Of a DNA stretch of 64,000 bases, positions 20,060 through 36,598 are shown piece after piece. Origin of the DNA: an uncultured Alphaproteobacteria bacterium (GTDB lineage: Bacteria; Pseudomonadota; Alphaproteobacteria; RF32; CAG-239); NCBI GenBank assembly GCA_944390355.1, contig CALXPT010000001.1, forward strand, positions 175,507 to 239,506, given 5' to 3'. A model generated the notes under the pieces. It was not told the origin of the DNA. It did not search any database and was given only the letters and a program-made list of their open reading frames with translations. A program made the position numbers and the translations under genes. The number at the start of each line of letters is the position of its first letter. The first letter of the stretch is position 1.

Positions 20060-20075
20060 ATTTTATAACCAGCAA

Positions 20076-20108: not shown

Positions 20109-20110
20109 TT

Positions 20111-20473: not shown

Positions 20474-20475
20474 GG

Positions 20476-20877: not shown

Positions 20878-21015
20878 CTTGTTTCTCCTTTTATTAAAAT
20901 TGCTTCCGTGATAGGTTATACGATAAAAAAAAATTTGTCAGTTAAAAAAAATGCAAAATATAAAAAATTATACTTGATTTTTGTTTCGGAGTTTTGTATG
21001 TTTCATCTGCAATGT

Positions 21016-21090
21016 GCCGCCGTAGCTCAGTGGTAGAGCACGTCATTGGTAATGACGGGGTCGTAAGTCCGATTCTTATCGGCGGCACCA
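21016..21090 (+). tRNA. tRNA-Thr (anticodon GGU)
   Basis: Manual fold. Acceptor GCCGCCG/CGGCGGC. D-arm GCTCAGTGGTAGAGC. Anticodon loop TTGGTAA. T-arm. Encoded CCA. Confidence 0.85.
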
Positions 21091-22623
21091 TTTATCAGTT
21101 TCTGGCGTTTTTAGTAGTTCATTGAATGGCTTAACTATTGAAAACGCTATATTTTTTCCTTCAGTTTTGCAGTCCGATAATATTAATTTCAAAATGTCTC
21201 TTTTTTCAGAAATAATCGGACTTTTTAAGAATTTTCCTACATTTGCTGCTATTTCCGCGATATTTGCTAGTATTTCATCAGTTTCAGCATCAATCTCAAG
21301 GTATTTATCCATATCTTTTTGTAGTTTTTCTTTTTCCATTTCAATTTCAGTTTTCAGTTCATTATACATTTTTTCATCACATTTGCCTTGAATATAGCCA
21401 CGGAACAAGGTTTTGAGCTGTTCATCTAATTGATTTACCTTGATAGTAATATCACGTTTGAGAGTCGCTGTATTTACTCTTTCTTCTTTAAGCTGCTTTT
21501 TGACTTCGGCTTTAATATTTTTTAGCATATCGTCACTAACGGCAAGAGGTAACGACAATTCTTTTTCAAGCTGGGCGAGGATTTTGGCTTCATTGATTGG
21601 TTTTTGTGAACATTTGGAACGTAATTTGTTACATTTTAAATAATTGTAAGAATGTTTATCGTCTTTTACTTTAGTTTCACAAGTCATTAAACTACCACAA
21701 CAACCACATCTGACTAAACCTGTAAAAATATATTGTTTATCTCCATAATATAATTTACTTGGTGCTCGTTTTCTTCCTTCCATAGTATCTTGGACAATTT
21801 GAAACAATTCTTTATCTATAAATAAAGGATAAGGATGTTTGTAAACTTTGCCTTTTTGCGTAAAATATCCAATGTAAAAAGTGTTTTTCAGTATATTTTG
21901 AACTTGAGCTCGACTAATTGTTTTATTTACACGACACATTTTTGAAGATAATCCTAAGGTTCTGGCTAGATTGGTAATGTCTTGCAAGGTTCGACCGCCT
22001 TTGGCATATTCTTCAAAAAGTCTTTTAACCTTTGGTGCTCGTTCTTCATCTATAATTATATTTGCTGGAGTCGATTTGGTTTTTGATATATTTAAATATC
22101 CTACCGGTGCACAAGATTGCCATTGTCCTGCTTCTCTTTTATATTCCTGACTGCGTAAAACATTGTCTCTTAAAGCACCCACATACATCTTAGCGGATAA
22201 AATTCCCATATCCCAACGTAAAATATCAGAAGAGGTACTGTCTTTATGCAAATAGAAACCTTCTTTATAAAAATGTATCTCTATTCTTCCTTGTTTACGC
22301 AAATCGTCTAATTCAACACATTCCTTATATCCTCTTTGCAATCTATCGACACAATTTACAACAATAGCGGTTTTGTGTTTTTGAGATTTTACAAACTCAA
22401 GCATTTCATAAAATTTTAAACGCCCACCTCGCGTTGAACTTTCAACAATAGAGAATTTATCAAGAATCTTAAATTTGTGATTGTTACAATAATCAACAAC
22501 CGTTTTAAGTTGTGCATCAATGGACGCTCCTTTCTTTTGTTCTTCCGATGAAACTCGAGCAAATATAACGGCTTGTTTACATTCTTCATCTGCAATATTT
22601 TGATATTTATTTCTTTTAGACAT
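21076..22623 (-). CDS. Large serine recombinase (island integrase)
   Basis: 515 aa. N-terminal resolvase catalytic domain (VIFARVSSEEQ with catalytic Ser). Recombinase domain, Cys-rich zinc ribbon (CGCCGSLMTC), C-terminal coiled coil. 3' end overlaps tRNA-Thr 3' end by 15 nt. Confidence 0.85.
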   Translation of the reverse strand: MSKRNKYQNIADEECKQAVIFARVSSEEQKKGASIDAQLKTVVDYCNNHKFKILDKFSIVESSTRGGRLKFYEMLEFVKSQKHKTAIVVNCVDRLQRGYKECVELDDLRKQGRIEIHFYKEGFYLHKDSTSSDILRWDMGILSAKMYVGALRDNVLRSQEYKREAGQWQSCAPVGYLNISKTKSTPANIIIDEERAPKVKRLFEEYAKGGRTLQDITNLARTLGLSSKMCRVNKTISRAQVQNILKNTFYIGYFTQKGKVYKHPYPLFIDKELFQIVQDTMEGRKRAPSKLYYGDKQYIFTGLVRCGCCGSLMTCETKVKDDKHSYNYLKCNKLRSKCSQKPINEAKILAQLEKELSLPLAVSDDMLKNIKAEVKKQLKEERVNTATLKRDITIKVNQLDEQLKTLFRGYIQGKCDEKMYNELKTEIEMEKEKLQKDMDKYLEIDAETDEILANIAEIAANVGKFLKSPIISEKRDILKLILSDCKTEGKNIAFSIVKPFNELLKTPETDKWCRR

Positions 22624-22742
22624 GATGTTACTCCTTTGTTTTTACATTACATTTATTATGTCGTGTTATTTTGGGAAAGTACGCAGTTATTTTCAGTTTC
22701 TTGCAATTTTTTTACTAACAAATTACTGATATTTCAAAATGT

Positions 22743-22799
22743 TAACCTAATTCCCAATTGGAACGAGGTTATAAAAAGTTATTGTCGTTAACGTCACGA
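22743..22799. repeat. Composite site: 27-bp imperfect palindrome (AACCTAATTCCCAATTGGAACGAGGTT) plus TTATTGTCGTTAACGTCACGAA motif; left direct repeat of the module
   Basis: Near-identical arrangement at 27960-28030. Related 27-bp site at 26461-26487. Confidence 0.6.
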
Positions 22800-22844
22800 A
22801 GTTAAAAAATAACCTCTGCTAAAATTTACAGAGGTTTGAGGTAT

Positions 22845-23030
22845 TCAAGGTGATTTAGTGTCATTAATGTCCGTTAGTTGTTTTTCAGATTGCTTTGCAT
22901 GATAAACAGCCTTTGCTCCTAAATAGAAAAAACGGATTAATTTGTTAGTCATTTCAGTTAATTCATCATCCGTAAAATCGGGATAATAAATCTTTAATTC
23001 TTCTTTTATTTCATTAAACGTATCAATCAT
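22845..23030 (-). CDS. Small hypothetical protein
   Basis: 61-aa ORF, no clear RBS. Weak. Confidence 0.2.
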   Translation of the reverse strand: MIDTFNEIKEELKIYYPDFTDDELTEMTNKLIRFFYLGAKAVYHAKQSEKQLTDINDTKSP

Positions 23031-23229
23031 AATAATTATATGTCGGGATTGAATAAATATGTAAAACAGGAAACGAAAAATTTTAATTTCTAGCAGATTT
23101 TAGTTTATAGTATGTGTACGTTTAAGGTTTCTTTATTGCTTAATTATATTTTAATTGTTAGAATTACATTAAGATATGCATAAAAGAAATATATATAAAA
23201 AATTTACTATTCCATATTAAAATATAAAG

Positions 23230-24228
23230 TTGAGGAATATTGTGTGGAACAATTTTAGATTTATAGATTTATTTGCAGGTATTGGTGGAATAAGGCTTGG
23301 CTTCGAAGCTGTTGGCGGTCGTTGTGTTTTTTCTTCAGAATTTGATGAGGATGCTTGTAAGACATACGAAGCTAATTTTGGAGAACATCCATCTGGTGAT
23401 ATTACAAAAATAAATGCCGCAGATATACCAGACTTTGATATTCTTTTAGGCGGATTTCCTTGTCAAGCCTTTTCTATAATTGGAAAAAAAGAAGGATTTG
23501 CAAATGAAACTTGTGGGACTTTGTTTTTTGATATTGAACGAATATTAAAAGAAAAACGACCAGCTGCATTTATGCTAGAAAATGTAAAAAATCTTACGGC
23601 ACATGATGGCGGAAAGACATTTAAAATTATAAAAGAACATTTAGAACATTTGGGGTATCATATATACGCAAAGGTTTTAAATGCTATAGACTTTGGTGTG
23701 CCACAAAATAGAGAGCGTATAATAATCGTGGGTTTTTTAGAAAATGTAAATTTTCATTTTCCAGTACCTGTCTCAATTGAAAATCGCAAAGTATTAAAAG
23801 ATATATTAGAGCAAAATGTTGATAAAAAATACTATGTGAATGACAAAATTAAAAAGTCTAGATTGGAGAGACTAAAAGACAAAAATTATCCTAAACCTTA
23901 TATTTCTCATGAAAATATGGCAGGTTCTGTTACTCCACATCCTTATTCTTCTGCTTTAAGAGCTGGAGCATCAGCAAATTATATATTAATTAATGATGAA
24001 AGACGTCCTACTGAAAGAGAAATGCTAAGAATACAAGGCTTTCCTGATAGTTTTAAGATTGTACTTCCATATAGTAAAATAAAAAAGCAATGTGGAAACT
24101 CCGTTGCTGTCCCCGTTATTCAAGCTGTTGCTCGAGAAATGATTAAAGCTTTAACTTCACCAACAAGGATAAAAAACAATTCTAGCAAGAGTTCTTGTGA
24201 TTATTTAAAACAAGGAGTTTTATTATGA
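23230..24228 (+). CDS. DNA cytosine-5 methyltransferase
   Basis: 332 aa. Motif I FAGIGG, motif IV GFPCQAFS, ENV motif. Start TTG 23230 or GTG 23242 after GAGGAA. Confidence 0.85.
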   Translation: MRNIVWNNFRFIDLFAGIGGIRLGFEAVGGRCVFSSEFDEDACKTYEANFGEHPSGDITKINAADIPDFDILLGGFPCQAFSIIGKKEGFANETCGTLFFDIERILKEKRPAAFMLENVKNLTAHDGGKTFKIIKEHLEHLGYHIYAKVLNAIDFGVPQNRERIIIVGFLENVNFHFPVPVSIENRKVLKDILEQNVDKKYYVNDKIKKSRLERLKDKNYPKPYISHENMAGSVTPHPYSSALRAGASANYILINDERRPTEREMLRIQGFPDSFKIVLPYSKIKKQCGNSVAVPVIQAVAREMIKALTSPTRIKNNSSKSSCDYLKQGVLL

Positions 24229-25277
24229 GTATATACGATGATGCCAAAAAGGCATTAGACACAGTATTAAACAAATCAAGAGTACATTTATACAAACCGA
24301 TTCAAATTGCTGAAATTTTATATCATGATCGTATATACAAAGATATAAATCTTCTGAATTTAGAAGATTACAGAAATAAAAGTAAAAAATGGCGAGATGA
24401 TATATGTATTCAATTATTAGGTAGGGTATGTACTAGTAGTGCAAAATTCCAAGACAATTTGTTTGAAACTAACGCTCTTCCTCCAAAATTTATCAATGCA
24501 CTAGGCATAAAAAACAGAGAAACACATGGAGCTATTGAAGCATATATATACAACAAATTTATAGCAAAACACAGTCAATTGTCCTCGGCATTATCGTACT
24601 GTATAGATTCGACTATTAGCACTTTTGATGTTAAGCATTTAATAGATTCATTTTGGTGTGAACCTGGACTTAAGCGTAGCTTAGATAAAATTTATGAAAT
24701 TATCGTGTATGCATTATTTGCAACATTAGTGGAAATTTTGGAATTTAAAGTTCAAGTACATGTAGAAAAAAAGCATTTAGACTTACTAGATGATTTTTCT
24801 GAATTTGCACAAAAAGTGATGTGTATAGACTTTCAAAATCCCCAATATATTCAAGATGCAAGAGTGTATCGTGTCGGAGTGACAAATGCAGCCGATAGAG
24901 GTTTGGATATGTATTCTAACTGGGGACCTGCTATACAAATAAAGCACTTAAGTTTAGATGTCGAGCTTGCTGAAAATATAGTAAATAGTGTATCATCTGA
25001 TAGAATAGTAATTGTTTGTAAAAATGCAGAAAAAGATGTTATTTTATCTCTTCTAACTCAGATAGGTTGGAAAAGTAAAATACAAAGTATTATTACAGAG
25101 AACAACTTAATTAATTGGTACGAAAAGGCATTGCGAGGAAAATTTGCTAAAATTATCGGCCAAAAATTATTAGACCGTTTAAGAGATGAAATTATCAATG
25201 AATTTCCTCCCATTAATAATATTCCTGATGTTATAAAAAATCGTCATTATGATAAGATATCAATAGAAATGTTATAA
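24225..25277 (+). CDS. Putative Type II restriction endonuclease partner of the C5-MTase
   Basis: 350-aa ORF overlapping MTase stop (ATGA). No fold-level motif confidently seen. Confidence 0.45.
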   Translation: MSIYDDAKKALDTVLNKSRVHLYKPIQIAEILYHDRIYKDINLLNLEDYRNKSKKWRDDICIQLLGRVCTSSAKFQDNLFETNALPPKFINALGIKNRETHGAIEAYIYNKFIAKHSQLSSALSYCIDSTISTFDVKHLIDSFWCEPGLKRSLDKIYEIIVYALFATLVEILEFKVQVHVEKKHLDLLDDFSEFAQKVMCIDFQNPQYIQDARVYRVGVTNAADRGLDMYSNWGPAIQIKHLSLDVELAENIVNSVSSDRIVIVCKNAEKDVILSLLTQIGWKSKIQSIITENNLINWYEKALRGKFAKIIGQKLLDRLRDEIINEFPPINNIPDVIKNRHYDKISIEML

Positions 25278-25639
25278 ATTTAACTATTCTTTGTTTCTAT
25301 TAATAAGATAACTTCTAGTTCAAATCTGGAAGTTATTTTTTACTATTCGACTTAAAGATTTATCATCCTAGAATCGTAGCAAAATGTTACCAAGAACGTG
25401 AGTTTTAGGGGCTCGCGGATGGGAAAATATACTGCATAATATAAATAGTTAATGAGTGAAACAACTATTTATGAAAGGAAAAACAATGTGGCATGTAAAA
25501 TTAAATAATACAATTCTTCCAACGCCTTATCAATATTTTAGCGATTGTCTTAAGGAATGCAAAAGACTGCAATGGGTTATGGTTGCGGTATGTACTGAAC
25601 CTGTATTTGTTGACTAATTTGGTATCAAGGAGATTTGCT

Positions 25640-25909
25640 ATGTTAAAAGATTTTGAAAACTGGTTGCTAAATAATAATTACAGACCTACCACCGCTTTTG
25701 ATTATCAAGGAAGAATTGAAAGATTATGTCGTGCTGAAGGTTATACTTTGTCTCATTTGGTTGAAAACATTGCTTTGATTTTACCTGAATATGAAATTAA
25801 CGGTAAAAAATCAAGTTATGGTAAAAGAAGCCATACTTCAGTTAGACAAGCCTTAAGACGTTTTAAAATGTTTTTGATATCAAATAAATTAATTGAAAGT
25901 GCAAACTAA
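25640..25909 (+). CDS. Small hypothetical protein
   Basis: Strong RBS AAGGAG before ATG 25640 (ORF-track start 25583 less likely). Stop overlaps next start (ATGA). Confidence 0.4.
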   Translation: MLKDFENWLLNNNYRPTTAFDYQGRIERLCRAEGYTLSHLVENIALILPEYEINGKKSSYGKRSHTSVRQALRRFKMFLISNKLIESAN

Positions 25910-26226
25910 TGACTGATATCAAAACATTAAATGATAACTTTAGAAGAACCTTTAGCGGTGGAGGAGTTATGTTAACTTGTGGAATTAATGCCAAAAATCA
26001 AAGTGAACAGGCTGAAATTCTTAATCAAGTTAGATGTTTTAATAATTTTACCACCGCCAATGAGCCGTATAATGAACATGATTTTGGAAGTTTTAACTAC
26101 AAAGGAGAACAAATTTATTGGAAAATTGATTATTATGATAAAAATTATCAATTTTGTTCAGAAGATCCAAGTAATCCAAATATAACTAACCGAATTATGA
26201 CGATTATGTTATCTCACGAATATTAA
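25909..26226 (+). CDS. DUF3768-like small protein
   Basis: 105 aa. N-terminal pattern LNDNFRRTFSGGGVMLTCGI resembles the DUF3768 family common on plasmids/ICEs of alphaproteobacteria. Confidence 0.4.
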   Translation: MTDIKTLNDNFRRTFSGGGVMLTCGINAKNQSEQAEILNQVRCFNNFTTANEPYNEHDFGSFNYKGEQIYWKIDYYDKNYQFCSEDPSNPNITNRIMTIMLSHEY

Positions 26227-26330
26227 AACAATTTAGTCCGATTTGAGTAATATCAAGTCGGATTTTTTATTATTGATAATTTAACTTCTTAACATCAACG
26301 ACAACAAGTTATTTTAAACATCTCATTTTT

Positions 26331-26401
26331 TAACCCGTGGATACAATCGTTTTATTTGATATAGGTTTTATTACTTTTATTAAATTCGGATATCCACGGG
26401 T
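26331..26401. repeat. Inverted repeat AACCCGTGGATA ... TATCCACGGGTT (12-13 bp arms, about 46-bp spacer)
   Basis: Seen directly. Lies downstream of the HUH Rep gene. Candidate hairpin origin/nick region. Confidence 0.5.
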
Positions 26402-26460
26402 TGTTTATGGAGATATGGGATATAATTTTATAAGATATTTATGAAATTTCAAATAATTAA

Positions 26461-26487
26461 CCTAATTCTCAATCGGAATGAGGTTGT
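26461..26487. repeat. 27-bp imperfect palindromic site (AACCTAATTCTCAATCGGAATGAGGTT)
   Basis: Related to sites at 22743 and (inverted) 27960. Confidence 0.55.
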
Positions 26488-26662
26488 TTTTTATATCATA
26501 CTAACTTCACAATACAACTTTTGCAAAATTCAGCAGAAGTTAAACATAATAATACCTATTTACAATGTGTTATAACTTTTCAAAAGAATCTGATATAATT
26601 GTATTGTCGTGAATTTTGGGATTTGTAAACGGTTAAACTTCCATTATGATGTTTTTTATAAT

Positions 26663-27658
26663 TTAGTTTCTTTGAGGATTAAGATTAAATAAGTCTTCAG
26701 AAAAAATCATATGGTCATTATCAAATTTACCATTCCAATATATTTTTATTTCTTTCATACAATAATAAGTAACATTTAACAATTTTGGTTCAATTGGTTT
26801 TAAATTCATGCAATATGACGGTAAGTTTTCTCTCATCATTGCTTGAAAAATAGCATCTTGGAGTTCTTGTTCACTAAATCTTCCTCGATTAAATAATATA
26901 TGAAAATGCCAGTCCGAACTTATTCCATTTTCAGCAAATGCAATAAACCGAAGATGGTGATGCTCCCAATTGTTCATCAAACTCTTTTCAAATGCTTTCA
27001 TAATGTTTCTTAAATGACTAATTGAGTTATATAAATCTTTAGTCTTCTTGTTTTCTGGTAGTTGTACAGTTAAAAAATGAGTCGGTTTATATTCTTTAGC
27101 AATCCATTTATTTAATCTTTTTTTTATCGTGGAAGAATTTGTTGCCTTTTTTCCTTGAGACACAGATTTTATGATATTACCCATTTTTTGACTGTAGGAA
27201 TCAGTGTTTTTATTTGGTATAGGTTCGATTGCTTTTATATCATTTTGTAGTTCATGGGTTGTTTTAGGCTTGTTTATGCTCGTGTTTTGGTTAAGATTTT
27301 CATTATTAGCACATCTGGAGATATAAGAGAGTGTATTAACTATTTTCTGTATATAGTTTATTTTATTTTGCTTGAGTTTTTCATTATAAATACTCTTAAA
27401 TTTATTATAAAAACCATTTAATAAAGAAGAATTAACTAAATAATCCTTAAAAGAAATACCATATTCAATAAGAAAAGGACTCAATTTTACTTTATCAATA
27501 ACAGAAATTAATCCATATCTTCTTATAATACCTAAGACATATACATAATCATCAATACATCTTGTTGCATGACTTATTGACAATTTTAACATCTTGTTTT
27601 CTGTCATTATCTCTTGCAACCATATTCTTTCATATTTGTATTTATTCATTTTTATCAT
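26663..27658 (-). CDS. HUH-endonuclease (rolling-circle Rep/relaxase-like) protein
   Basis: 331 aa. HUH motif WHFHILF preceded by HLRFIAFAENG. Tyr candidates in YYCMKE. Flanked by inverted 27-bp sites and TTGTCGT repeats. Confidence 0.5.
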   Translation of the reverse strand: MIKMNKYKYERIWLQEIMTENKMLKLSISHATRCIDDYVYVLGIIRRYGLISVIDKVKLSPFLIEYGISFKDYLVNSSLLNGFYNKFKSIYNEKLKQNKINYIQKIVNTLSYISRCANNENLNQNTSINKPKTTHELQNDIKAIEPIPNKNTDSYSQKMGNIIKSVSQGKKATNSSTIKKRLNKWIAKEYKPTHFLTVQLPENKKTKDLYNSISHLRNIMKAFEKSLMNNWEHHHLRFIAFAENGISSDWHFHILFNRGRFSEQELQDAIFQAMMRENLPSYCMNLKPIEPKLLNVTYYCMKEIKIYWNGKFDNDHMIFSEDLFNLNPQRN

Positions 27659-27959
27659 CCAATTAGTATTTATTTAAGTTATTAATTTTATTTATTTTTT
27701 TAATAATAATTAAGTTATTTTTTGATATAAAAATAACAAAGGCCGCATGAATAAAAGCTTCCTCGTATCCCGAACTGATGAAACAGTTATACCAAGATTA
27801 TGGTGGATTTTGGTAATCGGTTTATAATGATACATTTAAATAGAATTGTTTTTTTCACAAAATCTAATGATAAAATTTCTTAAAGATAAAAATTTTTTGG
27901 TTTTACATTTTTGTTTTCCATGACATTATACATATAAAATCACATAAAAATAATGAGTT

Positions 27960-28030
27960 AACTTCATTCCAAATAAGAATTAGGTTGTTGGGTTATTTTA
28001 TAAAAAAGTTATTGTCGTTAACGTCACGAA
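27960..28030. repeat. Composite site (27-bp palindrome inverted relative to 22743 copy, plus TTATTGTCGTTAACGTCACGAA); right direct repeat of the module
   Basis: 24-nt motif identical to 22776-22799. Confidence 0.6.
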
Positions 28031-28447
28031 CTTTTAACATCTGAATATCAAAGGTTGAAATCATTAAATGACATTGATGTCGGTTAATCAACTTTTGTAA
28101 AAATTTGCAGAAGTCTATTTGAAAAATAAAAATCAAAGAAGCTCTCTCGCACGCAAAGGCCTTGACTAAAATTCGCTTAACAAAAAAACTAATCTTATCC
28201 AGTATGGTACGGCATAGTATGGCAGTATGGTATCCATGGAGGGTGTAGATGTCGGGCATCCTTTATGGCGGTGGAGCTATCCCGTTATGCTTATGCCAGT
28301 CCGATATTAAAATAAAGAGACAAAGACGGTTAAATCCTTGCCTCTCTATATATCTGTGCTATACAGTTTTTGAACTCCGAAGTTATATTGTCGTGTTATT
28401 TGCCAAATCGGAGCGGTAAAAACTCAACCTGTGCGTAAGTTGATAAA

Positions 28448-28930: not shown

Positions 28931-29574
28931 TAATCAGAAATCCTTGTTTTGGTTAAGGTAAAAACAGATATGTTATTATACCCGTTTTCCTTTAAAGCAT
29001 CCACATAAGCTCTCAACGTATTTCCACTATCAAAAACATCGTCAAAAATAAGATAATTATTATCCTTATTCAACAAAGAATAACGGATTGAAAGAGAATT
29101 TTTAACTTGTGCATATTTATCTTGTTCATCAATATTTTTAATCTGTTCTATATTTGTGGTATCCAAAGCATTAAATAAAAATTGTTTATTAAAAGTTTCT
29201 GATATTCCTTTGGCTACTTCAAATACAGGTTGAAAAGGACGAGCCTTATTAGATGGTGGAACTATTAAAATTGTATCTATGTTTGCTATAAATTTCTTAA
29301 AATCTTCCGAATTTGATAACAATTCAAGAATCCTTGTTACAGCAGAAAGATTATAACGATATTTTAATTGGTAAACCAAATTCCCCATTTCAGTTCTTTC
29401 TGTATCAAATTTACCAACTCCATTTGAGTATTCTTCAACGAGCACACTTCTTAATGTATGTTTATCGTATGCAAAACCTAAATTCCAAGGACCATATAAT
29501 GCAATCATATTTGAATTCTCCGAGTAATTTCTTTCAGTATACATATAAAAAAAATAAAAGCAATATTTACACAA
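28930..29574 (-). CDS. Phosphoribosyltransferase (type I PRTase) domain protein
   Basis: 214 aa. PRPP-binding motif YLIFDDVFDSGNTL (compare VLLVDDVLTTGSTL in the housekeeping comF-like gene at 48170). Confidence 0.65.
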   Translation of the reverse strand: MCKYCFYFFYMYTERNYSENSNMIALYGPWNLGFAYDKHTLRSVLVEEYSNGVGKFDTERTEMGNLVYQLKYRYNLSAVTRILELLSNSEDFKKFIANIDTILIVPPSNKARPFQPVFEVAKGISETFNKQFLFNALDTTNIEQIKNIDEQDKYAQVKNSLSIRYSLLNKDNNYLIFDDVFDSGNTLRAYVDALKENGYNNISVFTLTKTRISD

Positions 29575-29627
29575 GTATTATACAGTATGATTAGTTTAAT
29601 GAAATAATTCTAATTTTCGACTTAATT

Positions 29628-29791
29628 TCTTAAAATCGTCATAGAAATTAGTCCGATAATTGCATAGTATCTCGCACCATTTTTAAGATAGCACCTTTTA
29701 AGGTGCTTTTTTGCTATATAAACCAAGCCTTTCATTCAGTCCGATTTTATATATTTTGAAATTAGCGATTTTTGTAAACTTATCGGACTTT
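29628..29791. repeat. Inter-cassette repeat element copy A (140-bp core with TIRs AGTCCGATAA/TTATCGGACT, GCACCATTT core, internal hairpin+T-run, third AGTCCGAT half-site)
   Basis: Core 29650-29789. Conserved upstream CTTAAAATCGTCATA. Copies at 31729-31868, 34206-34565 (with 221-bp insert), 36345-36598 (truncated). Confidence 0.65.
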
Positions 29792-29910
29792 GAATGAAAA
29801 AAAACAATTTCTAAGATTTTTTTATTGCATAAAGGTGTGCGAAAATTAAAAATATAAATAGATAAATGCATTTTTTTTAATATAATAAATAATATTTAAT
29901 AGTCTGTTGG

Positions 29911-30807
29911 ATGATGATAGAAGAAAACGTTAAAAATATTTTTAAGAAAAATTTCTTACCATTTTATGAAGAAAGCAATGGTGAGTTGTTTTTGGGTGAC
30001 TGCATACAAAATATGAAAAAAATCAAAGACAATACTATTGATTTAATTTTTGCAGATCCTCCATATTCTATAAAAAAAGCCAAATGGGATACATTCAAAA
30101 GCAGAGAAGAGTATATCAAATGGTCCATAAAGTGGATTAAAGAAGCTCATAGGATATTAAAAGATACAGGAAGCCTTTATATTTGTGGATTTTCTGAAAT
30201 TTTAGCAGACCTTCATTTTCCTGCAATGAAGTATTTTAAAAATTCTCGTTGGTTAATTTGGTATTATAAAAACAAAGCTAATCTAGGAAAGGATTGGGGG
30301 CGAAGTCATGAAAGTATCATGTGCTTAAGAAAGTCAAATAATTATACTATTAATATTGAGAATATTCGTATACCTTATAATGCTCATACATTAAAGTATC
30401 CGGAACGTTCTCAAGCTACAAGTAGTCAATATGGAAACGGAAAAAAATATGATGGCTGGTCACCCAATCCTGCAGGTGCAAAGCCTAAAGATGTCATTGA
30501 AATTCCAACAACATGCAATGGAATGGGCGAAAAAACGCCTCATCCGACACAAAAACCTGAAGAATTGTTAAGAAAAGTCATTCTTGCTTCTTCTAATGAG
30601 AATGATATCATTTTGGATCCATTCTCAGGCAGTGGAACAACTGCTGTTTGTGCAAAACAGCTAAAGCGCCGCTGGATTGGTATTGAACAATGTCCGGAAT
30701 ATCTCGAATGGTCAATAGCTCGCTTAAAAAAGGTTCCTGATAAAAATATTGAAGACTGGATTAAATATGATAAAGATGTTTCAAAAAGAAGGGAAGCTAT
30801 TAGATGA
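29911..30807 (+). CDS. N6-adenine/N4-cytosine DNA methyltransferase (beta class)
   Basis: 298 aa. DPPY catalytic motif (FADPPYS) followed later by AdoMet motif DPFSGSGTT. Confidence 0.85.
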   Translation: MMIEENVKNIFKKNFLPFYEESNGELFLGDCIQNMKKIKDNTIDLIFADPPYSIKKAKWDTFKSREEYIKWSIKWIKEAHRILKDTGSLYICGFSEILADLHFPAMKYFKNSRWLIWYYKNKANLGKDWGRSHESIMCLRKSNNYTINIENIRIPYNAHTLKYPERSQATSSQYGNGKKYDGWSPNPAGAKPKDVIEIPTTCNGMGEKTPHPTQKPEELLRKVILASSNENDIILDPFSGSGTTAVCAKQLKRRWIGIEQCPEYLEWSIARLKKVPDKNIEDWIKYDKDVSKRREAIR

Positions 30808-31691
30808 AAACACTATGGGAAATTATGTCTTGGGTATCCCAAAAAGAAAAATTTACAAATATCAAAGACTATATTAATTTTGCAAAAGTTTATTTAGAAT
30901 TCATTTCCTCAGAACTACAGGCTGAGATTGTTGCTAAAAACGAAAATAATTATAAATTTTTGCAATATAGAAGAGATGGTGAATATAATATCACCAGACC
31001 AATTAATGGAAACTTATTTATGAGTTCTGATAAATATGATGAGTTTTCAAAGAGATTTATTGAAATATTAAATAATATAAAAAATATTAAACATGACTTT
31101 GCATTAAGAAACGATATTAATAGCTTTATTTATACAACGCAACAATCTATTGGTTGCGCCTTAGATGCTCTTCCTTCGTCTAAAACAAATACATCAAGAA
31201 AAGTTAATGGAGATTTATTTGAAAGATTAATGCAGCTTATCATTGCTCAATTAGGTTTTGATATAACATCTGAAACTTTGGGAGTAAAAATTCCTCAATC
31301 AAATGAAATAATGAATTACCAAAATGATATAGAAATCAAAATTAAAGGAGAAATTGTTGCCATTGGCTCTGTCAAAACTTCAAGTAAAGATCGAATAGAT
31401 AAAATTTTTCTTGATAAACTAATGTATAATAGACTAACGGCTACAGAAACGCCTCATTTTGCGATTTTTTTACATGATGTTCAACGAGCTGGAAAAGAGC
31501 CCGAATATAAAATAGGTCAAACATTTTTAACAGGACACTTTAAGGCCTATACAATAGGTTTAAATCCCCTTGATGGAGTATATTACTGTGATTTACGACC
31601 GATTATGAAAACAGATAACTTATTGAAAAGACATATTCAATCTTTAGATTGTCTTCTTTGTCAAGATATATGGAATTTTGTTTCTAAATAA
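30804..31691 (+). CDS. Putative Type II restriction endonuclease (PD-(D/E)xK-like)
   Basis: 295 aa. Overlaps MTase stop. Candidate D...DIEIK motif. Confidence 0.45.
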   Translation: MKTLWEIMSWVSQKEKFTNIKDYINFAKVYLEFISSELQAEIVAKNENNYKFLQYRRDGEYNITRPINGNLFMSSDKYDEFSKRFIEILNNIKNIKHDFALRNDINSFIYTTQQSIGCALDALPSSKTNTSRKVNGDLFERLMQLIIAQLGFDITSETLGVKIPQSNEIMNYQNDIEIKIKGEIVAIGSVKTSSKDRIDKIFLDKLMYNRLTATETPHFAIFLHDVQRAGKEPEYKIGQTFLTGHFKAYTIGLNPLDGVYYCDLRPIMKTDNLLKRHIQSLDCLLCQDIWNFVSK

Positions 31692-31728
31692 TTTTCTTAC
31701 TCAAAAGCTTAAAATCGTCATAGTTTTT

Positions 31729-31868
31729 AGTCCGATAATTGCACGGTATCTCGCACCATTTTTGATAATGCACCGATTTAGGTGCTTTTTTTGTATATAT
31801 TCCAAGCCTTTCAGAGAGTCCGATTTTTGAGTTTTTAAAATTAGAGATTTTTGATGAATTATCGGACT
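31729..31868. repeat. Inter-cassette repeat element copy B
   Basis: Same TIRs, GCACCATTTTT core, hairpin GCACCGATTTAGGTGC+T-run. Extra AGTCCGATAAAA half-site at about 31915. Confidence 0.65.
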
Positions 31869-32055
31869 TTTTGTGCAAACGCTAAGAAAATCAAGCTTTT
31901 TAGCATTTCAAATTCTAGTCCGATAAAATTTAATATAAACAATCTCTCAAACGAACATTTTTAGAACATTATTGTTGATTTTTAACTTTTTTACTTTATG
32001 ACTTGTAATAAGTATGGTAATTTTCTTAATAGAATCACTGTTAATGAGTTGAAAT

Positions 32056-32895
32056 ATGAAAAAAAATAACTTGGTCGTTCCTTTTGTTAAATGGGCTGGT
32101 GGTAAAAGGCAATTACTTCCAGAACTGATAAAACGTGTTCCGAAGTTTACTACATATTGTGAACCTTTTGTCGGAGGTGGTGCGCTGTTCTTTTATTTAC
32201 AACCGAAAAAAGCCATTATTAATGATTTTAACAAGGATTTAATTAATACTTATATCACAATACAAAATGATGTTGAATCGCTGATACAGCATTTATCCAC
32301 TTACAAAAATGATTCTGAAAGTTACTACAAAATAAGAGAGTTAGATAGAACACCTTTATTTCATAGAATGTCTGCTACAGAAAAAGCTTCCCGACTTATT
32401 TATCTTAATAAGACATGTTATAATGGACTATTTAGAGTCAATAGTATGGGTGAATTTAATTCTCCCTTTGGAAGTTATAAGTCTCCGAATATTGTCAATG
32501 AACCAACTCTTCGTGCTATTCATAATTATTTTCAAAATGCAGATGTTACATTTCTTAGTGGGGATTTTGAAGCAGCTGTTAAAGGATTAAAGAAAGGAAC
32601 ATTTGTTTATTTTGATCCTCCTTACGATCCTGTTTCCGCATCTTCAAATTTTACAGGTTATACTAATCTTGGATTTGGAAAACAAGAACAGAGAAGATTA
32701 AAAGAAGTATGTGACGAATTAAATGCAAAAGGTATTAAATTTTTGCTGTCTAATTCTGCTACTGATTTTATTTTAGACCTATATAAAGAATATAATATTG
32801 AGAAGATATCCGCTAAAAGAGTTATAAATTCCAATGCTAACAATCGCGGTAATGTTGATGAGGTTTTAATAAGAAACTATGACGAAAATAAATAG
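32056..32895 (+). CDS. Dam-like N6-adenine DNA methyltransferase (alpha class)
   Basis: 279 aa. N-terminal FVKWAGGKRQLL and DPPY motif. Confidence 0.85.
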   Translation: MKKNNLVVPFVKWAGGKRQLLPELIKRVPKFTTYCEPFVGGGALFFYLQPKKAIINDFNKDLINTYITIQNDVESLIQHLSTYKNDSESYYKIRELDRTPLFHRMSATEKASRLIYLNKTCYNGLFRVNSMGEFNSPFGSYKSPNIVNEPTLRAIHNYFQNADVTFLSGDFEAAVKGLKKGTFVYFDPPYDPVSASSNFTGYTNLGFGKQEQRRLKEVCDELNAKGIKFLLSNSATDFILDLYKEYNIEKISAKRVINSNANNRGNVDEVLIRNYDENK

Positions 32896-34159
32896 TTATT
32901 GGAACAATATTTTTGAAAAATATAAAATATTAGATCAAATTGATAAAGACGGAAAATTTGAAATTTCAGCAAGTCAGATAAATGAGTTTAAAGAAGCTCG
33001 TCTTATGACGAAATTTGATAATGCATCTCAATTGCCGCGAATTTTTACGGAAAATGAATTATCAATTTTACCGATAACACGCGGTAACTATGTAATTGCT
33101 CCGATGGATATTTTTCACAAATTTCCAATGATTGAATCTTCGAATGAAATTTCGTATTTTAATTTTCCTGATAATATACAAACATTATTGCCGGATAATA
33201 TCAATAGTGAATCTTTAGCTTTAAATGCTGTTTATATTTCAGAAATTTTAGAAGATTTTATACAAGATGAAAAATTATTGCCTACCATTAATGGTAGAAT
33301 GTCATCATCATTATTTAATTTTAACATTAAAAACACAAAAACGGAAAAAATCTTAAATATAAATGTAAACAATGCACAGATAGAAATAGATGCAGGTTAT
33401 GAAGGTGTAGAATCTTTTTCTATTATTGAAGCTAAATCGCATTTTGCTGATGACTTTGTTATTAGGCAACTATATTATCCTATGCGTCTATGGTCTAGTA
33501 GGGTAAGAAAAAATATTAAAACCATATTCATGGTTCATACTAATGGGATTTACTATTTGTATGATTTTAAATTTAATGACTTAAATAATTATAATTCATT
33601 GACTTTAAATAAATTCAAGAGATATAGCTTTGATAAATTGGAAATTAATATTGAAGACATCGAAAAGATAGTCTCAAATACGCATTTAGTAAATGAACCG
33701 CAAATTCCTTTTCCTCAGGCTGATAGTTTTGAACGTATTATAAATTTATGCGAACTATTAAATCAAAGAGAGTTAACAAAAGATGACGTAACAATGGAAT
33801 ATGGTTTTGATAAAAGGCAAACAGATTATTATTTAAATGCGTGCAAATATTTAGATTTGGTTGAAGAAAGAGATAGTAAATTTTTATTATCATCAACGGC
33901 AAGAAGAATAATGCAACAGTCGCCAACAACAAAACAGTTAGCTTTTGCAAAGCAAATACTGAGTCATCCTGTTTTTAGTGAGGTGTTGAAAAAACAATTG
34001 GAAACAGGTAAAGTTTTATCAAAACAACAAATAATTGATATAATGAAGAAATATCCTTTATTTAATGTAAAAACATATAACACTTTTTATAGAAGATCAT
34101 CAACCGTAAGCTCTTGGATTGATTGGATAACTTCATTGACATCAAATACTACTGTTTAA
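32879..34159 (+). CDS. Putative Type II restriction endonuclease partner of the Dam-like MTase
   Basis: 426 aa. Overlaps MTase 3' end. Candidate IEIDAG...IIEAKS PD-(D/E)xK motif. Confidence 0.45.
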   Translation: MTKINSYWNNIFEKYKILDQIDKDGKFEISASQINEFKEARLMTKFDNASQLPRIFTENELSILPITRGNYVIAPMDIFHKFPMIESSNEISYFNFPDNIQTLLPDNINSESLALNAVYISEILEDFIQDEKLLPTINGRMSSSLFNFNIKNTKTEKILNINVNNAQIEIDAGYEGVESFSIIEAKSHFADDFVIRQLYYPMRLWSSRVRKNIKTIFMVHTNGIYYLYDFKFNDLNNYNSLTLNKFKRYSFDKLEINIEDIEKIVSNTHLVNEPQIPFPQADSFERIINLCELLNQRELTKDDVTMEYGFDKRQTDYYLNACKYLDLVEERDSKFLLSSTARRIMQQSPTTKQLAFAKQILSHPVFSEVLKKQLETGKVLSKQQIIDIMKKYPLFNVKTYNTFYRRSSTVSSWIDWITSLTSNTTV

Positions 34160-34205
34160 TTAACTCCAGATTATATGCCAACTGCTTAAATTCATCATAG
34201 TTTTC

Positions 34206-34565
34206 AGTCCGATAACTGCATAGTATCGCGCACCATTTAACACAAAAGCCTCCGTTTGGGGGCTTTTGTGTTAAATGCATGAACGCTATTGAAGCGGACT
34301 TACGGGGGCAGAGTAAGTCCGGAGCGGGTAGTTGGTGAAAACAAGTGTAGAGCTTTAGCGAATAGCTTAGCGAAACACGAAGTTTGAACCTTACGGCGCG
34401 AAAGGGACCCGTTGGCTCAAAGCCAATGGGAATATACATTCTTATCGGCGGCACCATTTTTAGAATGCACCGATTGAGGTGCTTCTTTTATATATATTCC
34501 AAGCCTTTCCAAAAGTCCGATGTTGAGAATTTTTAATTTGATAATTTTTGTAAACTTATCGGACT
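34206..34565. repeat. Inter-cassette repeat element copy C, interrupted by a 221-bp segment that ends with a copy of the tRNA-Thr 3' end (attR-like)
   Basis: TIRs at 34206-34215 and 34556-34565. Insert flanked by GCACCATTT direct repeats (34230-34238 and 34451-34459). ATTCTTATCGGCGGCACCATTT at 34438-34459 equals tRNA 21072-21093. Confidence 0.65.
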
Positions 34566-36232
34566 TTTGTATGATTATCTAAGAACTCAACAAAATCTTT
34601 CGCTTGTTCCGGCGTTACATTTTTATTTTCATATTTTTGCGGAGGATAAAAGTTTTCTACTAGAGATGTTGGCGCTCTCTTGATATTTCCCCAATATGGA
34701 GCTTTACCGCTTAAATAATCATAAACACTCATTCCTTTTGAATCTTTCAGATTTATGTTCGCCCCTTTTTCTACCAGATATTTTGCTATATCCAGATGTC
34801 CTTCTTGCACGGCATACATCAAGGCCGTACGTTCTCCATTTGCAATGCAAATATGTTCCCAACAATTATTATCTTCTAAATTTCCCTTCTTTGTTTGAGC
34901 ATTGATATCCGCTCCGGCTTCAAGCAAAATTTTTACGCTTTCCATAAATCCATATTGAGCTGCATACATTAAAGCTGTTTTGCCAAATTCATTTTGAGCA
35001 TTGACATCCGTATTTAAGCCTATGCAATTCAATTTTTTTTCATTATTAGGGCAAGCTTCAATCAATACCTTTAATGCATCCGGTCGGTGTATGCTTACCA
35101 TTAAAATTTCATCTTTTTGATCCGGCGTTTCAGGTTCTGTAAAGACTTCCCCTTTTATTTTCTTATTTTCAATCCACGTTTTAATTTCCTGAACAGGAAC
35201 TCCTGAAAAAATCTTATAACGCAACGTGTCTTCATCAACAATAGAACTCTGTGCTGCCATTGGAATCATCGTGTAACGAGCATAAGAGTAAGCTTTTTCT
35301 TCAGAAACCTGAAATGTTTTTACATAATGTTTTGTTAGTTTCTCAACAGCTTGATTAAAGCCTATTCCATGTTTTATAACTTCATCAAAATATTTATAAT
35401 TCGGATATGATTCCATTGCCCATGCTTCAAGAGGCAAAGCTTGCAAATATTTTTGATCCGGATAATAACGACGCTCAAAGTTCCAATCCGGATCATAATG
35501 GCTTAAAATATTTTCATAAATATTTTTTGCCATATAAACATAACGTATTGAGCCTGGGTTATAAAATTCGAGTTCTCGTTGAATATAGTTATAATATTCT
35601 TCAACATCTGCTGGAAATTCATATTGAGGATACTGACTGCAATCTGAAATATCTAAAGTTTCTGCACCGTGACCACCACCAGCACTATCTAAAATAGCTG
35701 TTAAATGCAGTTTTTGTGCTGTTTTGCATGGGACAACAATTTTCCATGGAACATAACGCATATTTGTACTTTGCTGGTTCCATATATTGAAAAATTTTGA
35801 AAAATTAAACACTCCTACTTCTATTAAACAACTTAAATCTTTGTAACATTTCATATAATCATTCTTGATTAACTCTTCATTTTTATGCTGATACATTCTA
35901 TAAAACGGAGAATCAGGAACAACTTTTTCATATTGTGCAATGACATCTGTATGTAAGCGATGAGCTATTTTCTCAAATTCTGGCGTATTTACTTTTTGAG
36001 GTTCATATATACTAAGCAATATTAAATATTCGATAGCCGCAGAGTTATTTTTATCTGCTAATTTTTTTAAGTCTTTTATGGCTTGTTGGGGATTATCTTT
36101 TATATGTTTTACAATATTTTCATACTGTTTATCAATATCTTGTTCTATTTGTTCAGCTGTAACAAGAGAGGAGAAAAAAAGAAATGCAAAACAAATCATA
36201 AAAATTATTTTTTTAGCTCGAAACAAAATCAT
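34556..36232 (-). CDS. Secreted ankyrin-repeat protein
   Basis: 558 aa. Signal peptide. At least three ankyrin repeats (GKTALMYAAQYGFMESVKILLEAGADINAQ; GERTALMYAVQEGHLDIAKYLVEKGANINLKD). Confidence 0.8.
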   Translation of the reverse strand: MILFRAKKIIFMICFAFLFFSSLVTAEQIEQDIDKQYENIVKHIKDNPQQAIKDLKKLADKNNSAAIEYLILLSIYEPQKVNTPEFEKIAHRLHTDVIAQYEKVVPDSPFYRMYQHKNEELIKNDYMKCYKDLSCLIEVGVFNFSKFFNIWNQQSTNMRYVPWKIVVPCKTAQKLHLTAILDSAGGGHGAETLDISDCSQYPQYEFPADVEEYYNYIQRELEFYNPGSIRYVYMAKNIYENILSHYDPDWNFERRYYPDQKYLQALPLEAWAMESYPNYKYFDEVIKHGIGFNQAVEKLTKHYVKTFQVSEEKAYSYARYTMIPMAAQSSIVDEDTLRYKIFSGVPVQEIKTWIENKKIKGEVFTEPETPDQKDEILMVSIHRPDALKVLIEACPNNEKKLNCIGLNTDVNAQNEFGKTALMYAAQYGFMESVKILLEAGADINAQTKKGNLEDNNCWEHICIANGERTALMYAVQEGHLDIAKYLVEKGANINLKDSKGMSVYDYLSGKAPYWGNIKRAPTSLVENFYPPQKYENKNVTPEQAKDFVEFLDNHTKVR

Positions 36233-36344
36233 GTTATGTCCCTCTAATTATATCATTAATTTTAGCTTAGATTGAAAACATTAAAATTTTATTATGATAA
36301 GTTTTAACTTTCCTTATTATTTTCTTAAAATCGTCATAAAAATT

Positions 36345-36598
36345 AGTCCGATAACTGCATAGTATCGCGCACCATTTAACACAAAAGCCTCCGTTTGGGG
36401 GCTTTTGTGTTAAATGCATGAACGCTATTGAAGCGGACTTACGGGGGCAGAGTAAGTCCGGAGCGGGTAGTTGGTGAAAACAAGTGTAGAGCTTTAGCGA
36501 ATAGCTTAGCGAAACACGAAGTTTGAACCTTACGGCGCGAAAGGGACCCGTTGGCTCAAAGCCAATGGGAATATACATTCTTATCGGCGGCACCATTT
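36345..36598. repeat. Repeat element copy D (left TIR + 221-bp segment + second tRNA-Thr 3' end copy); island right boundary
   Basis: 36320-36600 is identical to 34180-34460 (about 280 bp). ATTCTTATCGGCGGCACCATTT at 36577-36598. Degenerate half-site AAGTCCGAT at 36652. Confidence 0.65.

Follow-up and report, generated by a model that had tools for sequence, protein, structure and literature searches.

How did the defence genes that follow a tRNA-Thr gene in this uncultured gut alphaproteobacterium come to stand there, and which enzyme put them in place? tRNA targeting is treated by textbooks and by the main island databases as a trait of tyrosine integrases, for which insertion at the 3' end with restoration of the tRNA is classic behaviour (PMC4383910). 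In the window, i.e., the whole 64,000-nucleotide stretch of DNA analysed here, the gene adjoining the tRNA codes for a large serine recombinase (LSR), and the initial annotation explained the region as one 15.5-kb island integrated by this enzyme, with a duplicated attR. We propose instead, with a probability of about 0.75, that the LSR built up the locus as a tRNA-anchored accretion array.

Five units and seven cores

The tRNA-Thr(GGT) gene at the left edge of the region (21016-21090, plus strand) is called by both ARAGORN and Rfam, as annotated before. The LSR gene (21076-22623, minus strand) has its stop codon in the acceptor stem, 15 nt inside the tRNA gene, exactly the overlap reported earlier. 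Its 515-aa product has the length (around 450-700 aa) and architecture of an LSR, with Resolvase (PF00239, residues 18-168, E = 9.5e-15), Recombinase (PF07508, 193-284) and Zn_ribbon_recom (PF13408, 299-356) domains and the motif FARVSSEEQ; it matches the phrog_95 integrase (E = 7e-64) and is at most 25-35% identical to phage integrases.

The 22-mer ATTCTTATCGGCGGCACCATTT of the tRNA end occurs at 21072, 34438 and 36577 (0.02 expected), both downstream copies being exact, as claimed. A direct repeat of 277 nt, of which about 255 nt are identical, ends in copies 2 and 3. A 9-nt core, GCACCATTT, is found seven times against 0.82 expected, on the plus strand only and always within 21085-36598; the first copy (21085-21093) is the junction of the tRNA with the LSR arm, and the other six are at 29674, 31753, 34230, 34451, 36369 and 36590. 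Both the 277-nt repeat and the shorter core had been overlooked in the initial annotation. Five units make up the region, arrayed with these seven same-strand cores as their junctions: an 8.6-kb LSR element, two restriction-modification (R-M) cassettes, an ankyrin cassette and a gene-less 221-bp unit, H-Pl2.

The LSR element carries the LSR, an R-M system, a DUF3768/Rep module and a PRTase pair. Upstream of the LSR, a 61-aa ORF (22845-23030, minus strand) that gave no match in family searches is kept beside the LSR in other species and is a candidate accessory or directionality factor. R-M system 1 (C5 methylase and HaeII-type endonuclease, 23230-25277, plus strand) is variable cargo. The conserved element module (25583-28259) consists of a 108-aa ORF, DUF3768, a candidate HUH-type Rep with a weak HUH match (26663-27658, minus strand) and an 88-aa ORF, and it is followed by a ShosT/PsyrT-like PRTase with a 160-aa partner (28448-29574, minus strand). 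Cassette RM1 (29675-31753, plus strand; 2,079 bp core to core) encodes an N6/N4 methylase (29911-30807) and a REase_II endonuclease (30804-31691), and cassette RM2 (31754-34230, plus strand; 2,477 bp) a Dam-like methylase (32056-32895) and another REase_II endonuclease (32879-34159). The ankyrin cassette (34452-36369, 1,918 bp) is made of a U arm, a gene for a secreted ankyrin protein (34556-36232, minus strand) and a Pl1 arm. None of these three cassettes encodes a recombinase, and all of them have both a U arm and a Pl1 arm. H-Pl2 is present as an extra copy (34231-34451, plus strand, 221 bp) and a resident copy (36370-36590, plus strand). It starts with a hairpin, H, continues as a GC-rich, hairpin-rich block that opens with the T-arm-like GTAAGTCCG, and its 3' end is the last 22 nt of tRNA-Thr. 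The cargo given in the initial annotation (three R-M pairs, PRTase and partner, HUH Rep, ankyrin protein) was thus recovered in full; the three R-M systems, all of type II, and the Shosta/PsyrTA-like pair are its defence genes.

The AT-richness that had been used to set the region apart from its flanks holds on the left, where GC content is 0.37-0.48 compared to 0.24-0.33 over 21-34 kb, but not on the right, since the chromosomal flank at 36.6-43 kb is likewise AT-rich (0.32-0.41). A contig from an independent sample (L051) matches window positions 27953-42155 at 99.9%; therefore, the repeats are not an assembly artefact, which had been a concern for the copies of the tRNA end.

Allelic variation at the tRNA-Thr site

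The window was compared with same-species contigs whose flanks are 97-99.9% identical to it. One of them, L053, is an empty allele with the structure tRNA/H-Pl2/B', flanks that are 99.2-99.6% identical and nothing that corresponds to 21095-36362; measured against it, the insertion extends from the core at 21086 to the core at 36370 and comprises 15,284 bp. The empty tRNA-Thr site confirms the insertion. Of the earlier view, three points are supported: the recombinase gene is physically linked to the 3' end of tRNA-Thr, the region was acquired horizontally, and its left boundary is at the tRNA. The 22-mer at 36577 predates the island because its H-Pl2 copy exists in the empty allele, and what was taken for a duplicated attR is a part of this 221-bp unit.

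In other same-species contigs, units change position and are present or absent one by one. L056 lacks precisely RM2, and the two sides of this deletion overlap by 55 nt where they meet. In L040, which has no LSR, RM1 follows tRNA/H-Pl2 at the Pl2 core; in L050, this core is taken by the LSR element; a 601-aa cassette occupies the tRNA core in L041 and the Pl2 core in L042. The ankyrin cassette takes other array positions in L038, L040, L049 and L050, and the arrays of L038, L040, L041 and L042 are devoid of the LSR. No circular contig was found that would represent an excised circle, and the Pl1/LSR junctions recovered from metagenomes are inside long contigs, which weighs against our proposal.

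These contigs bear directly on the possibility that a single island of 15.5 kb arrived through one LSR integration and had its attR duplicated afterwards. Such an event would fit the three copies of the 22-mer, and the absence of the entire 21086-36370 interval from L053 indicates that the array could move or arrive as one block. However, there are four further cores inside the supposed island, its RM1, RM2, ankyrin and LSR units are separate and reordered among the contigs, and the third 22-mer is found in the empty allele, hence it is no integration product. With seven cores and five units that come and go individually, the single-island model is already largely refuted and we consider it improbable.

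Arms, crossover interval and half-site geometry

Each core separates a left arm from a right arm. The tRNA is the B-type left arm, and Pl1, TTAAAATCgTCATAGaaaTTAGTCCGATAATTGCATAGTATCTCG (29630-29674, plus strand; further copies at 31709-31753, 34186-34230 and 36325-36369), is the P-type left arm. The U arm, a right arm with a terminator hairpin and a 52-bp inverted repeat, is at 29683-29789 (plus strand), 31762-31868 and 34460-34565. The B' arm (36599-36660, plus strand) is the chromosomal right flank, with a terminator at 36607-36623 and one AGTCCGAT at 36653, and a lipoprotein gene (36727-37131) lies 3' of it. The LSR arm has an inverted repeat of 52 bp as well, AGTCCGAT-N36-ATCGGACT (21171-21222), which is located within the 3' coding region of the LSR, 80 nt beyond the end of tRNA-Thr, and is conserved in distant homologues. 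Across 50+ loci, the left arms tRNA, Pl1 and Pl2 are combined with the right arms LSR arm, U, H and B' in nearly all ways, and the arm type always switches at the core. Core position -2 segregates with the left arm, and positions 7-8 go with the right arm, as seen in L013 and L028; therefore, the crossover can be placed within G-CACCAT, the narrowest interval that the segregation of the arms defines. The identity used in recombination is about 7-9 nt (G-CACCAT) and not 22 nt, for the arms reassort exactly at this point.

An array with such ends might also be shuffled by homologous recombination between the 45-nt Pl1 or the ~115-nt U modules, the LSR having inserted the first element only or being irrelevant by now. 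Copies of Pl1 and U form direct repeats with 78-90% identity, the deletion of RM2 left the 55-nt overlap described above, and H-Pl2 is repeated with 100% identity over 255 nt. Yet the tRNA/U, tRNA/H, tRNA/B', Pl2/LSR and Pl1/LSR pairs share nothing beyond the 7-9-nt core, and the arm types are conserved across species around unrelated cargo, which argues for selection on the ends; as an explanation of the whole array, homologous recombination is thus unlikely. A single cassette flanked by two Pl1 arms (45-55 nt, about 90% identical) could nevertheless have been lost or gained by this route, and this counts against the LSR proposal.

The proposed role of the LSR draws on the geometry of the left half-sites. 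The T-loop of the tRNA contains AGTCCGAT (21066-21073) 12 nt 5' of CACCA, and in Pl1 the same motif is 17 nt 5' of CACCA; at such distances it is found in left half-sites only. In LSRs, attB and attP differ by 5 bp in the position of the zinc-ribbon motif (PMC3783163), and the 12- and 17-nt spacings match this shift. Phage integrases such as the Listeria A118-type LI integrase, phiC31 and Bxb1 likewise combine Resolvase and Recombinase domains with a zinc ribbon and have a recognition motif whose distance to the crossover is 5 bp shorter in host-type sites than in element-type sites (PMC3783163). They differ in using quasi-palindromic sites of 40-50 bp, most of which are located in protein genes; in our array, a tRNA end is targeted, the motif is confined to the left half-site, and the conserved element arm, with its 52-bp inverted repeat, spans 115-137 bp. 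An inverted copy of the motif is absent at the expected distance right of the core in every arm type, so the sites are no quasi-palindromes like the classical LSR att sites, which is a point against the LSR model. The Pl2 end has no 8-mer at the expected distance from the core; therefore, its use by the LSR is only putative.

In the accretion that we propose, the 8.6-kb LSR element would integrate at the extreme 3' end of tRNA-Thr by recombination inside G-CACCAT, which covers the last acceptor-stem bases, the discriminator and CCA, and since every partner arm has the same core, the tRNA would always be rebuilt. The LSR, as the presumed catalyst, would read the T-loop-like 8-mer as its half-site motif, at 12 nt in the tRNA (attB-type) and at 17 nt in Pl1 (attP-type). 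The LSR-less cassettes have the same ends, Pl1 on one side and U on the other, and by analogy to cis-mobilizable elements or pseudo-SCC units they were most likely moved by the LSR in trans. The resident 221-bp H-Pl2 would supply a second copy of the tRNA end, i.e., a second core; excision via one core and re-integration at the other would then duplicate H-Pl2, and we propose that the threefold 22-mer arose because of this. Two further points against the proposal are that LSRs normally integrate by recombining attP with attB and no other pair of sites, and that no directionality factor was found for this LSR.

Known parallels and relatives at other tRNA genes

Published parallels to such an array exist. 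In the ssrA islands of Dehalococcoides, the gene of a ~540-aa CcrB-like LSR, DsiB, is on the reverse strand and adjoins attL at the 3' end of a tRNA-like gene, a direct repeat of the gene end of ~20 bp has its boundary in the T-loop, and islands are stacked in tandem, some of them having no integration module, which was read as accretion of cis-mobilizable elements (PMC3146451). Those islands target tmRNA, their integration module comprises six genes, and besides DsiB they encode a small serine recombinase, DsiA (PMC3146451). Our array, in contrast, has a single LSR, the conserved 8-N36-8 repeat, an effective core of 7-9 nt and much smaller cassettes (1.9-2.5 kb) with well-conserved ends. SCCmec and pseudo-SCC elements at rlmH, driven by CcrAB or CcrC, are another case of LSR-mediated insertion at the 3' end of a conserved gene that is left undisrupted. 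SCCmec differs in its protein-coding target, its Firmicutes hosts and the usually joint action of CcrA and CcrB; we know of no T-loop-like motif or accessory inverted repeat in it. As in our array, its stacked units are separated by short direct repeats and some are devoid of a recombinase (also summarised in PMC3146451). Prochlorococcus tycheposons are similar in organisation: small cargo elements with replication genes are stacked beside tRNAs and leave partial tRNAs and degraded elements behind, mostly through tyrosine recombinases and ~40-nt tRNA-derived att sites, an LSR being present in a minority (27 of 937 elements; 10.1101/2020.12.28.424599). The initial annotation called an LSR at a tRNA unusual; it is indeed rare, but the Dehalococcoides and Prochlorococcus elements are precedents and, as described below, the habit is apparently clade-wide.

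As in a tDNA island, the region encloses an integrase between an intact tRNA and a copy of the 3' end of this tRNA, although the long 22-nt copy is pre-existing and the true junction fragment is 9 nt. As in an accretion array, recombinase-less units with functional-looking att ends lie beside a recombinase-bearing unit. The array also resembles integrons, with a recombinase by a fixed anchor site and a row of small, mostly single-function cassettes that have their own ends and are present or absent between strains; however, neither the tyrosine recombinase IntI nor the folded single-stranded attC sites nor the common promoter of integrons is found here, and the cassette ends are Pl1 and U.

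Of 35 species-representative loci, 28 have the LSR directly beside tRNA-Thr, and four others (L017, L025, L027, L029) have it after Pl1 or Pl2 and a core. LSR DNA is 93-94% identical between species with 72-82% identical trpS and murA, and the Rep-module DNA is 95-97.5% identical to that of L003, L006 and L007, compared to 76-82% for host genes; therefore, the element moves horizontally. Homologues with 28-51% identity are present at ten other tRNA genes, including those of Legionella and Neochlamydia, and overlap the 3' ends of tRNA-Met, Arg, Gly, Pro, Leu, Glu, Asn and Tyr; a degraded homologue is near tRNA-Ser, and that of L069 overlaps a tRNA 3' fragment that is not called by ARAGORN. The 8-N36-8 repeat with a T-loop-like motif is found ~80 nt beyond the tRNA end in the homologues, and in the tRNA-less L061, L058 being the only sampled homologue in which it was undetected, and its two motif arms co-vary through 8 variants. 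tRNA-end targeting turns out, as far as these gene positions indicate, to be a property of the whole LSR clade.

That a tyrosine integrase or a hijacked Xer-type enzyme encoded elsewhere than in the array is at work, with the LSR as cargo or as a domesticated gene, is very improbable: tRNA 3'-end targeting is classic for tyrosine integrases (PMC4383910), the homologue of Legionella has a tyrosine recombinase gene as its neighbour and four same-species arrays lack the LSR, but the LSR 3' end is a junction arm in every sampled tRNA-abutting system, the motif spacing obeys the attB/attP rule for LSRs, and no tyrosine recombinase is present in the array of the window or in the 28 tRNA-Thr loci examined. 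Since that tyrosine recombinase gene adjoins the Legionella LSR, the LSR is not the sole candidate enzyme in every relative.

A broader interpretation, which we offer tentatively and with somewhat less than even odds, is that these enzymes form an undescribed LSR clade of Alphaproteobacteria, Legionella and Chlamydiae that uses the tRNA end from T-arm to CCA as an attB half-site, can be retargeted between tRNAs, has an extended asymmetric attP with the 52-bp inverted repeat and provides an integron-like platform for defence cassettes in gut Alphaproteobacteria. Retargeting would be possible because the recognition motif mimics the T-loop, the accessory inverted repeat would sit within the coding end of the enzyme itself, and the platform would capture and reshuffle recombinase-less defence cassettes. 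One LSR lineage is located systematically at eleven or more different tRNA genes, which are left undamaged. It provides a natural series of serine integrases with conserved, ubiquitous landing pads, of interest for genome engineering, and a concrete model for the swapping of defence genes as 2-kb cassettes among uncultured gut Alphaproteobacteria. The mechanism is testable in a cultured relative, Legionella adelaidensis NCTC12735. The site geometry can be read directly from sequence also in Legionella, where the tRNA has GGTTCAAG 12 nt and the internal junction AGTTCGTA 17 nt from AGCCA.

Layout and cargo of the tRNA-Thr array

The tRNA-Thr(GGT) gene occupies positions 21016-21090 and is overlapped by the 515-aa ORF of the large serine recombinase (LSR; 21076-22623, minus strand; Resolvase, Recombinase and Zn_ribbon_recom domains), the stop codon of which lies 15 nt within the tRNA gene. 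GC content falls to 0.24-0.33 across 21-34 kb of the window. The initial annotation described a single island at this tRNA; the feature is real and the core idea survives, but the object is a multi-unit accretion array, units of which are missing or moved in same-species contigs. The 9-nt core GCACCATTT occurs seven times, always on the plus strand and always inside 21085-36598 (0.82 copies expected), and each copy is the junction of one of three left arms with one of four right arms. The left arms are the tRNA, Pl1 (45 nt, TTAAAATCnTCATAnnnnTTAGTCCGATAAyTGCAyrGTATCkCG) and Pl2, the end of a GC-rich block; the right arms are the LSR 3' coding end, U (a terminator hairpin, then a 52-bp repeat), H (a hairpin, then Pl2) and the chromosomal flank B'. 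The heptamer AGTCCGA is present in 25 copies (3.6 expected), 18 of them in the array and one being the T-loop of tRNA-Thr itself, and in four places it makes up the 52-bp inverted repeat, AGTCCGAT-N36-ATCGGACT, with none expected. The U arms were considered as mere decayed LSR 3' ends, with which they have the repeat and its position in common, but they carry a terminator and not coding sequence.

The LSR element (21086-29674) directly follows the tRNA core and is succeeded by the LSR-less cassettes RM1 (29675-31753) and RM2 (31754-34230). The ankyrin cassette (34452-36369), likewise without an LSR, sits between two copies of the 221-bp gene-less unit H-Pl2 (34231-34451 and 36370-36590), the second of which leads into B'. 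The ORFs of 102 and 109 aa that are annotated antisense to the H-Pl2 repeat (34149-34457 and 36267-36596, minus strand) are almost certainly spurious gene calls.

The cargo proposed earlier is confirmed for three type II R-M pairs, for a ShosT/PsyrT-like PRTase with its partner gene and for the ankyrin protein, which is secreted; the HUH Rep also stands, with a weak match and the motifs HFHIL and YCMK, which can be read in the sequence. DUF3768 is found among the cargo as well, and ORFs of 61, 88 and 108 aa, the first of them a candidate directionality factor, have no PADLOC or PHROGs match. A phmmer search of PDB with the LSR returned spurious RecA matches only. With the LSR as query, the viral contigs of IMG/VR gave no match and thus no sign of a phage. 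An integron was rejected, the array having neither a tyrosine recombinase nor attC.

The empty site and the resident H-Pl2 unit

Same-species contigs were found through exact copies of two flanking host proteins in other assemblies and were then mapped to the window. An empty tRNA-Thr site, which the initial annotation had proposed looking for in related genomes, is found in contig L053: here 12112-21094 is joined straight to 36363-39893 (99.2-99.6% identity) in the order tRNA, H-Pl2, B', and relative to it the window carries an insertion of 15,284 bp, from the core at 21086 to the core at 36370. Since L053 is empty and yet contains the 221-bp H-Pl2, second copy of the 22-mer included, H-Pl2 must be older than any insertion. 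The 22-mer ATTCTTATCGGCGGCACCATTT does occur in three exact copies, as first noticed (21072, 34438 and 36577; 0.02 expected in the window), but the presence of H-Pl2 in the empty allele makes this pattern largely a property of the resident locus.

The other contigs differ by whole units. L056 corresponds to the window with precisely RM2 missing; in L040, which has no LSR, RM1 comes straight after tRNA and H-Pl2; in L050 the ankyrin cassette comes first and the LSR element follows at the Pl2 core; and one and the same 601-aa cassette occupies the tRNA core in L041 but the Pl2 core in L042. The tRNA is joined to U in L047, and in L043 the LSR arm is followed by an APH-family (PF01636) gene without an LSR. 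An assembly artefact, which had been named as a possible refutation, does not account for the repeats, because L051, from a different sample, matches 27953-42155 at 99.9%; the tRNA-H junction recurs in at least four independent assemblies, and the joins share only 9-18 nt, too little for an assembly to collapse there. Metagenomes were also scanned for the junction expected after excision (Pl1-core-LSR arm); the six contigs recovered all had it inside an array, and none was circular. ERZ24773291 is among the samples in which this species is present.

H-Pl2 consists of a terminator-like hairpin, the sequence ACGGGG..GTAAGTCCG, which resembles a tRNA variable loop, T-stem and half T-loop, a block of about 126 nt rich in GNRA-type hairpins, and the last 15-22 nt of the tRNA. 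In seven of seven genomes both tRNA-like parts track the host's own tRNA sequence (T-stem GTAAG or GCAAG; acceptor end CGGCGG, CAGCGG or TAGCGG), which indicates that the unit, unlike the LSR element, evolves with its host. RNAalifold gave 31 pairs, 11 with compensatory changes. Rfam offered no credible match for the repeat, whether by gathering threshold or by E-value, and ARAGORN found neither a tmRNA nor a second tRNA in it. We regard H-Pl2 as a resident pseudo-tRNA end that provides a second core and may also be an RNA gene. A cassette excised via one core and re-integrated at the other would carry H-Pl2 along, and such a step would leave the duplicated block that is seen as a 277-nt direct repeat (34185-34461 and 36324-36600, about 255 nt identical), the ends of which are the second and third 22-mer copies.

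Each of the two copies of H-Pl2 in L038 (at 10805 and 12905 of the reverse complement) has lost the Pl2 end, core and start of the U arm, a deletion that may be real or an assembly slip. A second variable spot is found at 10602-11810, with a 350-aa ORF (10731-11783) lacking a family match: 10601 is joined to 11811 in L038 and L040-L043, and L047 has a 393-aa ORF instead, beside gapR. The stretch 36600-42950 is also AT-rich (GC 0.32-0.41), with many ORFs without family matches; it is present in the empty allele, its gene content varies by strain (Fic, HTH and others in L038, L041 and L049), and it may represent a part of the same variable region that is older and has become fixed.

Crossover and half-site geometry

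Core positions 7-8 vary with the right arm (CACCATTA before H in L013 and CACCATGA before H in L028, versus CACCATTT before the LSR arm in the same genomes) and base -2 with the left arm (GG for tRNA and Pl2, CG for Pl1), which places the exchange inside G-CACCAT. This interval takes in the final bases of the acceptor stem, the discriminator and CCA, plus one further base, and so the tRNA is regenerated every time. The distance from AGTCCGAT to CACCA is 12 nt in the tRNA and 17 nt in Pl1; for LI integrase, the zinc-ribbon motif is 5 bp nearer the crossover in attB than in attP (PMC3783163). The offset is equal in the 33%-identical homologue of Legionella adelaidensis, where GGTTCAAG in tRNA-Asn is followed after 12 nt by AGCCA, and AGTTCGTA, at an internal junction 12.4 kb into the island, after 17 nt. 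An inverted motif was sought in the right half-sites and found in none, so the site is asymmetric.

The 52-bp repeat was tested as the crossover site itself, but there is no reassortment at its centre and the central dinucleotide is not conserved. Reassortment of arm and cargo is seen at the outer boundary on its right side (L030, L043), and the repeat is treated here as a candidate end of the functional arm or accessory binding site.

The T-loop of tRNA-Thr (T-arm 21064-21075) reads TCCGATT, with C at the near-universal U55 position, in all 28 species (loci L003-L036), and with this C the T-arm matches the LSR motif AGTCCGAT exactly; tRNA-Val in the window has the canonical TTCGAGT.

Spread of the recombinase and its tRNA-targeting relatives

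Among uncultured gut Alphaproteobacteria, 35 species-representative genomes (labelled, for example, 'Azospirillum sp. 51_20' or 'Ca. Scatocola') carry the LSR, which adjoins tRNA-Thr(GGT) with the same overlap in 28; in another four (L017, L025, L027 and L029) it follows Pl1 or Pl2 and a core, i.e., it is inside an array. Between genomes, DNA identity is 93-94% for the LSR and 95-97.5% for the DUF3768-Rep module (L003, L006, L007) but 72-82% for the host genes trpS and murA, indicating that the element moves between species. In L026, L027 and L028 (reverse complement, ~10640) the LSR gene breaks off near residue 292 and runs on into an inverted copy of 25372-25743, a recurrent inversion in three species that is predicted to inactivate the recombinase. 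In many database ORFs the C-terminal half of the LSR is fused to cargo domains (P0045, P0049, P0056, P0067, P0075, P0079). The murA gene, about 6 kb downstream of the array in the window (42959-44257), is directly upstream of tRNA-Thr in opposite orientation in nine other species (L004, L005, L008, L010, L019, L022, L024, L028, L036); thus, chromosome rearrangement breakpoints coincide with this locus.

Elements with serine recombinases have as a rule been reported from within protein genes (PMC5704250), and Islander describes them as 'not known' to target tDNAs (PMC4383910). There are nevertheless precedents. In Prochlorococcus an LSR is present in 27 of 937 integrase-carrying elements (10.1101/2020.12.28.424599), and the Dehalococcoides ssrA islands agree with the present array in gene orientation, in a 20-bp repeat that starts in the T-loop, in their tandem arrangement and in having units that lack a recombinase (PMC3146451); among protein-gene targets, SCCmec composites are the mechanistic analogue. 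The tRNA targeting remarked on initially is present here and, judged from the homologues compared, belongs to an entire clade of LSRs, the site architecture of which is distinctive and partly unexplained. The LSR gene 3' end lies at tRNA-Arg (L065, 51% identity to the window LSR), tRNA-Gly (L066/67, 46%), tRNA-Met (L064, 43%), tRNA-Pro (L068, 42%), tRNA-Leu (L070, 35%), tRNA-Asn (L072, L. adelaidensis, 33.5%), tRNA-Glu (L071, 32%) and tRNA-Tyr (L073, Neochlamydia, 28.5%). A degraded copy (L034, 36%) is near tRNA-Ser, L069 (40%) has a tRNA 3' fragment in which ARAGORN finds no tRNA, and two homologue groups (L058 and L061/63) have no tRNA. All tRNA-abutting homologues keep an 8-N36-8 inverted repeat, located some 80 nt beyond the end of the tRNA (103 nt in L071), and so does the tRNA-less L061; none was found in L058. 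Its arms co-vary (variants AGTCCGAT, AGTTCGAT, AGTTCAAA, AGTTCGAA, CGTTCGAT, AGTTCGCA, AGTTCGGA and TGTTCTGA), and such symmetric change argues for selection on the DNA site and not on the protein. The LSR motif is T-loop-like, identical to the partner tRNA T-arm for Thr and Glu and matching it at 7 of 8 positions for Met, Pro and Arg.

L070 (MT837677.1) and L071 (MT836653.1), both from human faeces, are labelled 'Bacteriophage sp.' in GenBank and are actually bacterial chromosome fragments. The L. adelaidensis NCTC12735 sequence (NZ_LR134433.1) is labelled a plasmid, yet carries rho, uvrB, fumC and cyd genes. Its tRNA-Asn island (L072/L074, 241-254 kb; LSR at 252461-253960) bears AbiE pairs, a helicase and a methylase of the Eco57I type; a tyrosine recombinase lies immediately upstream of the LSR, and a further copy of the LSR arm is found 12.4 kb into the island.
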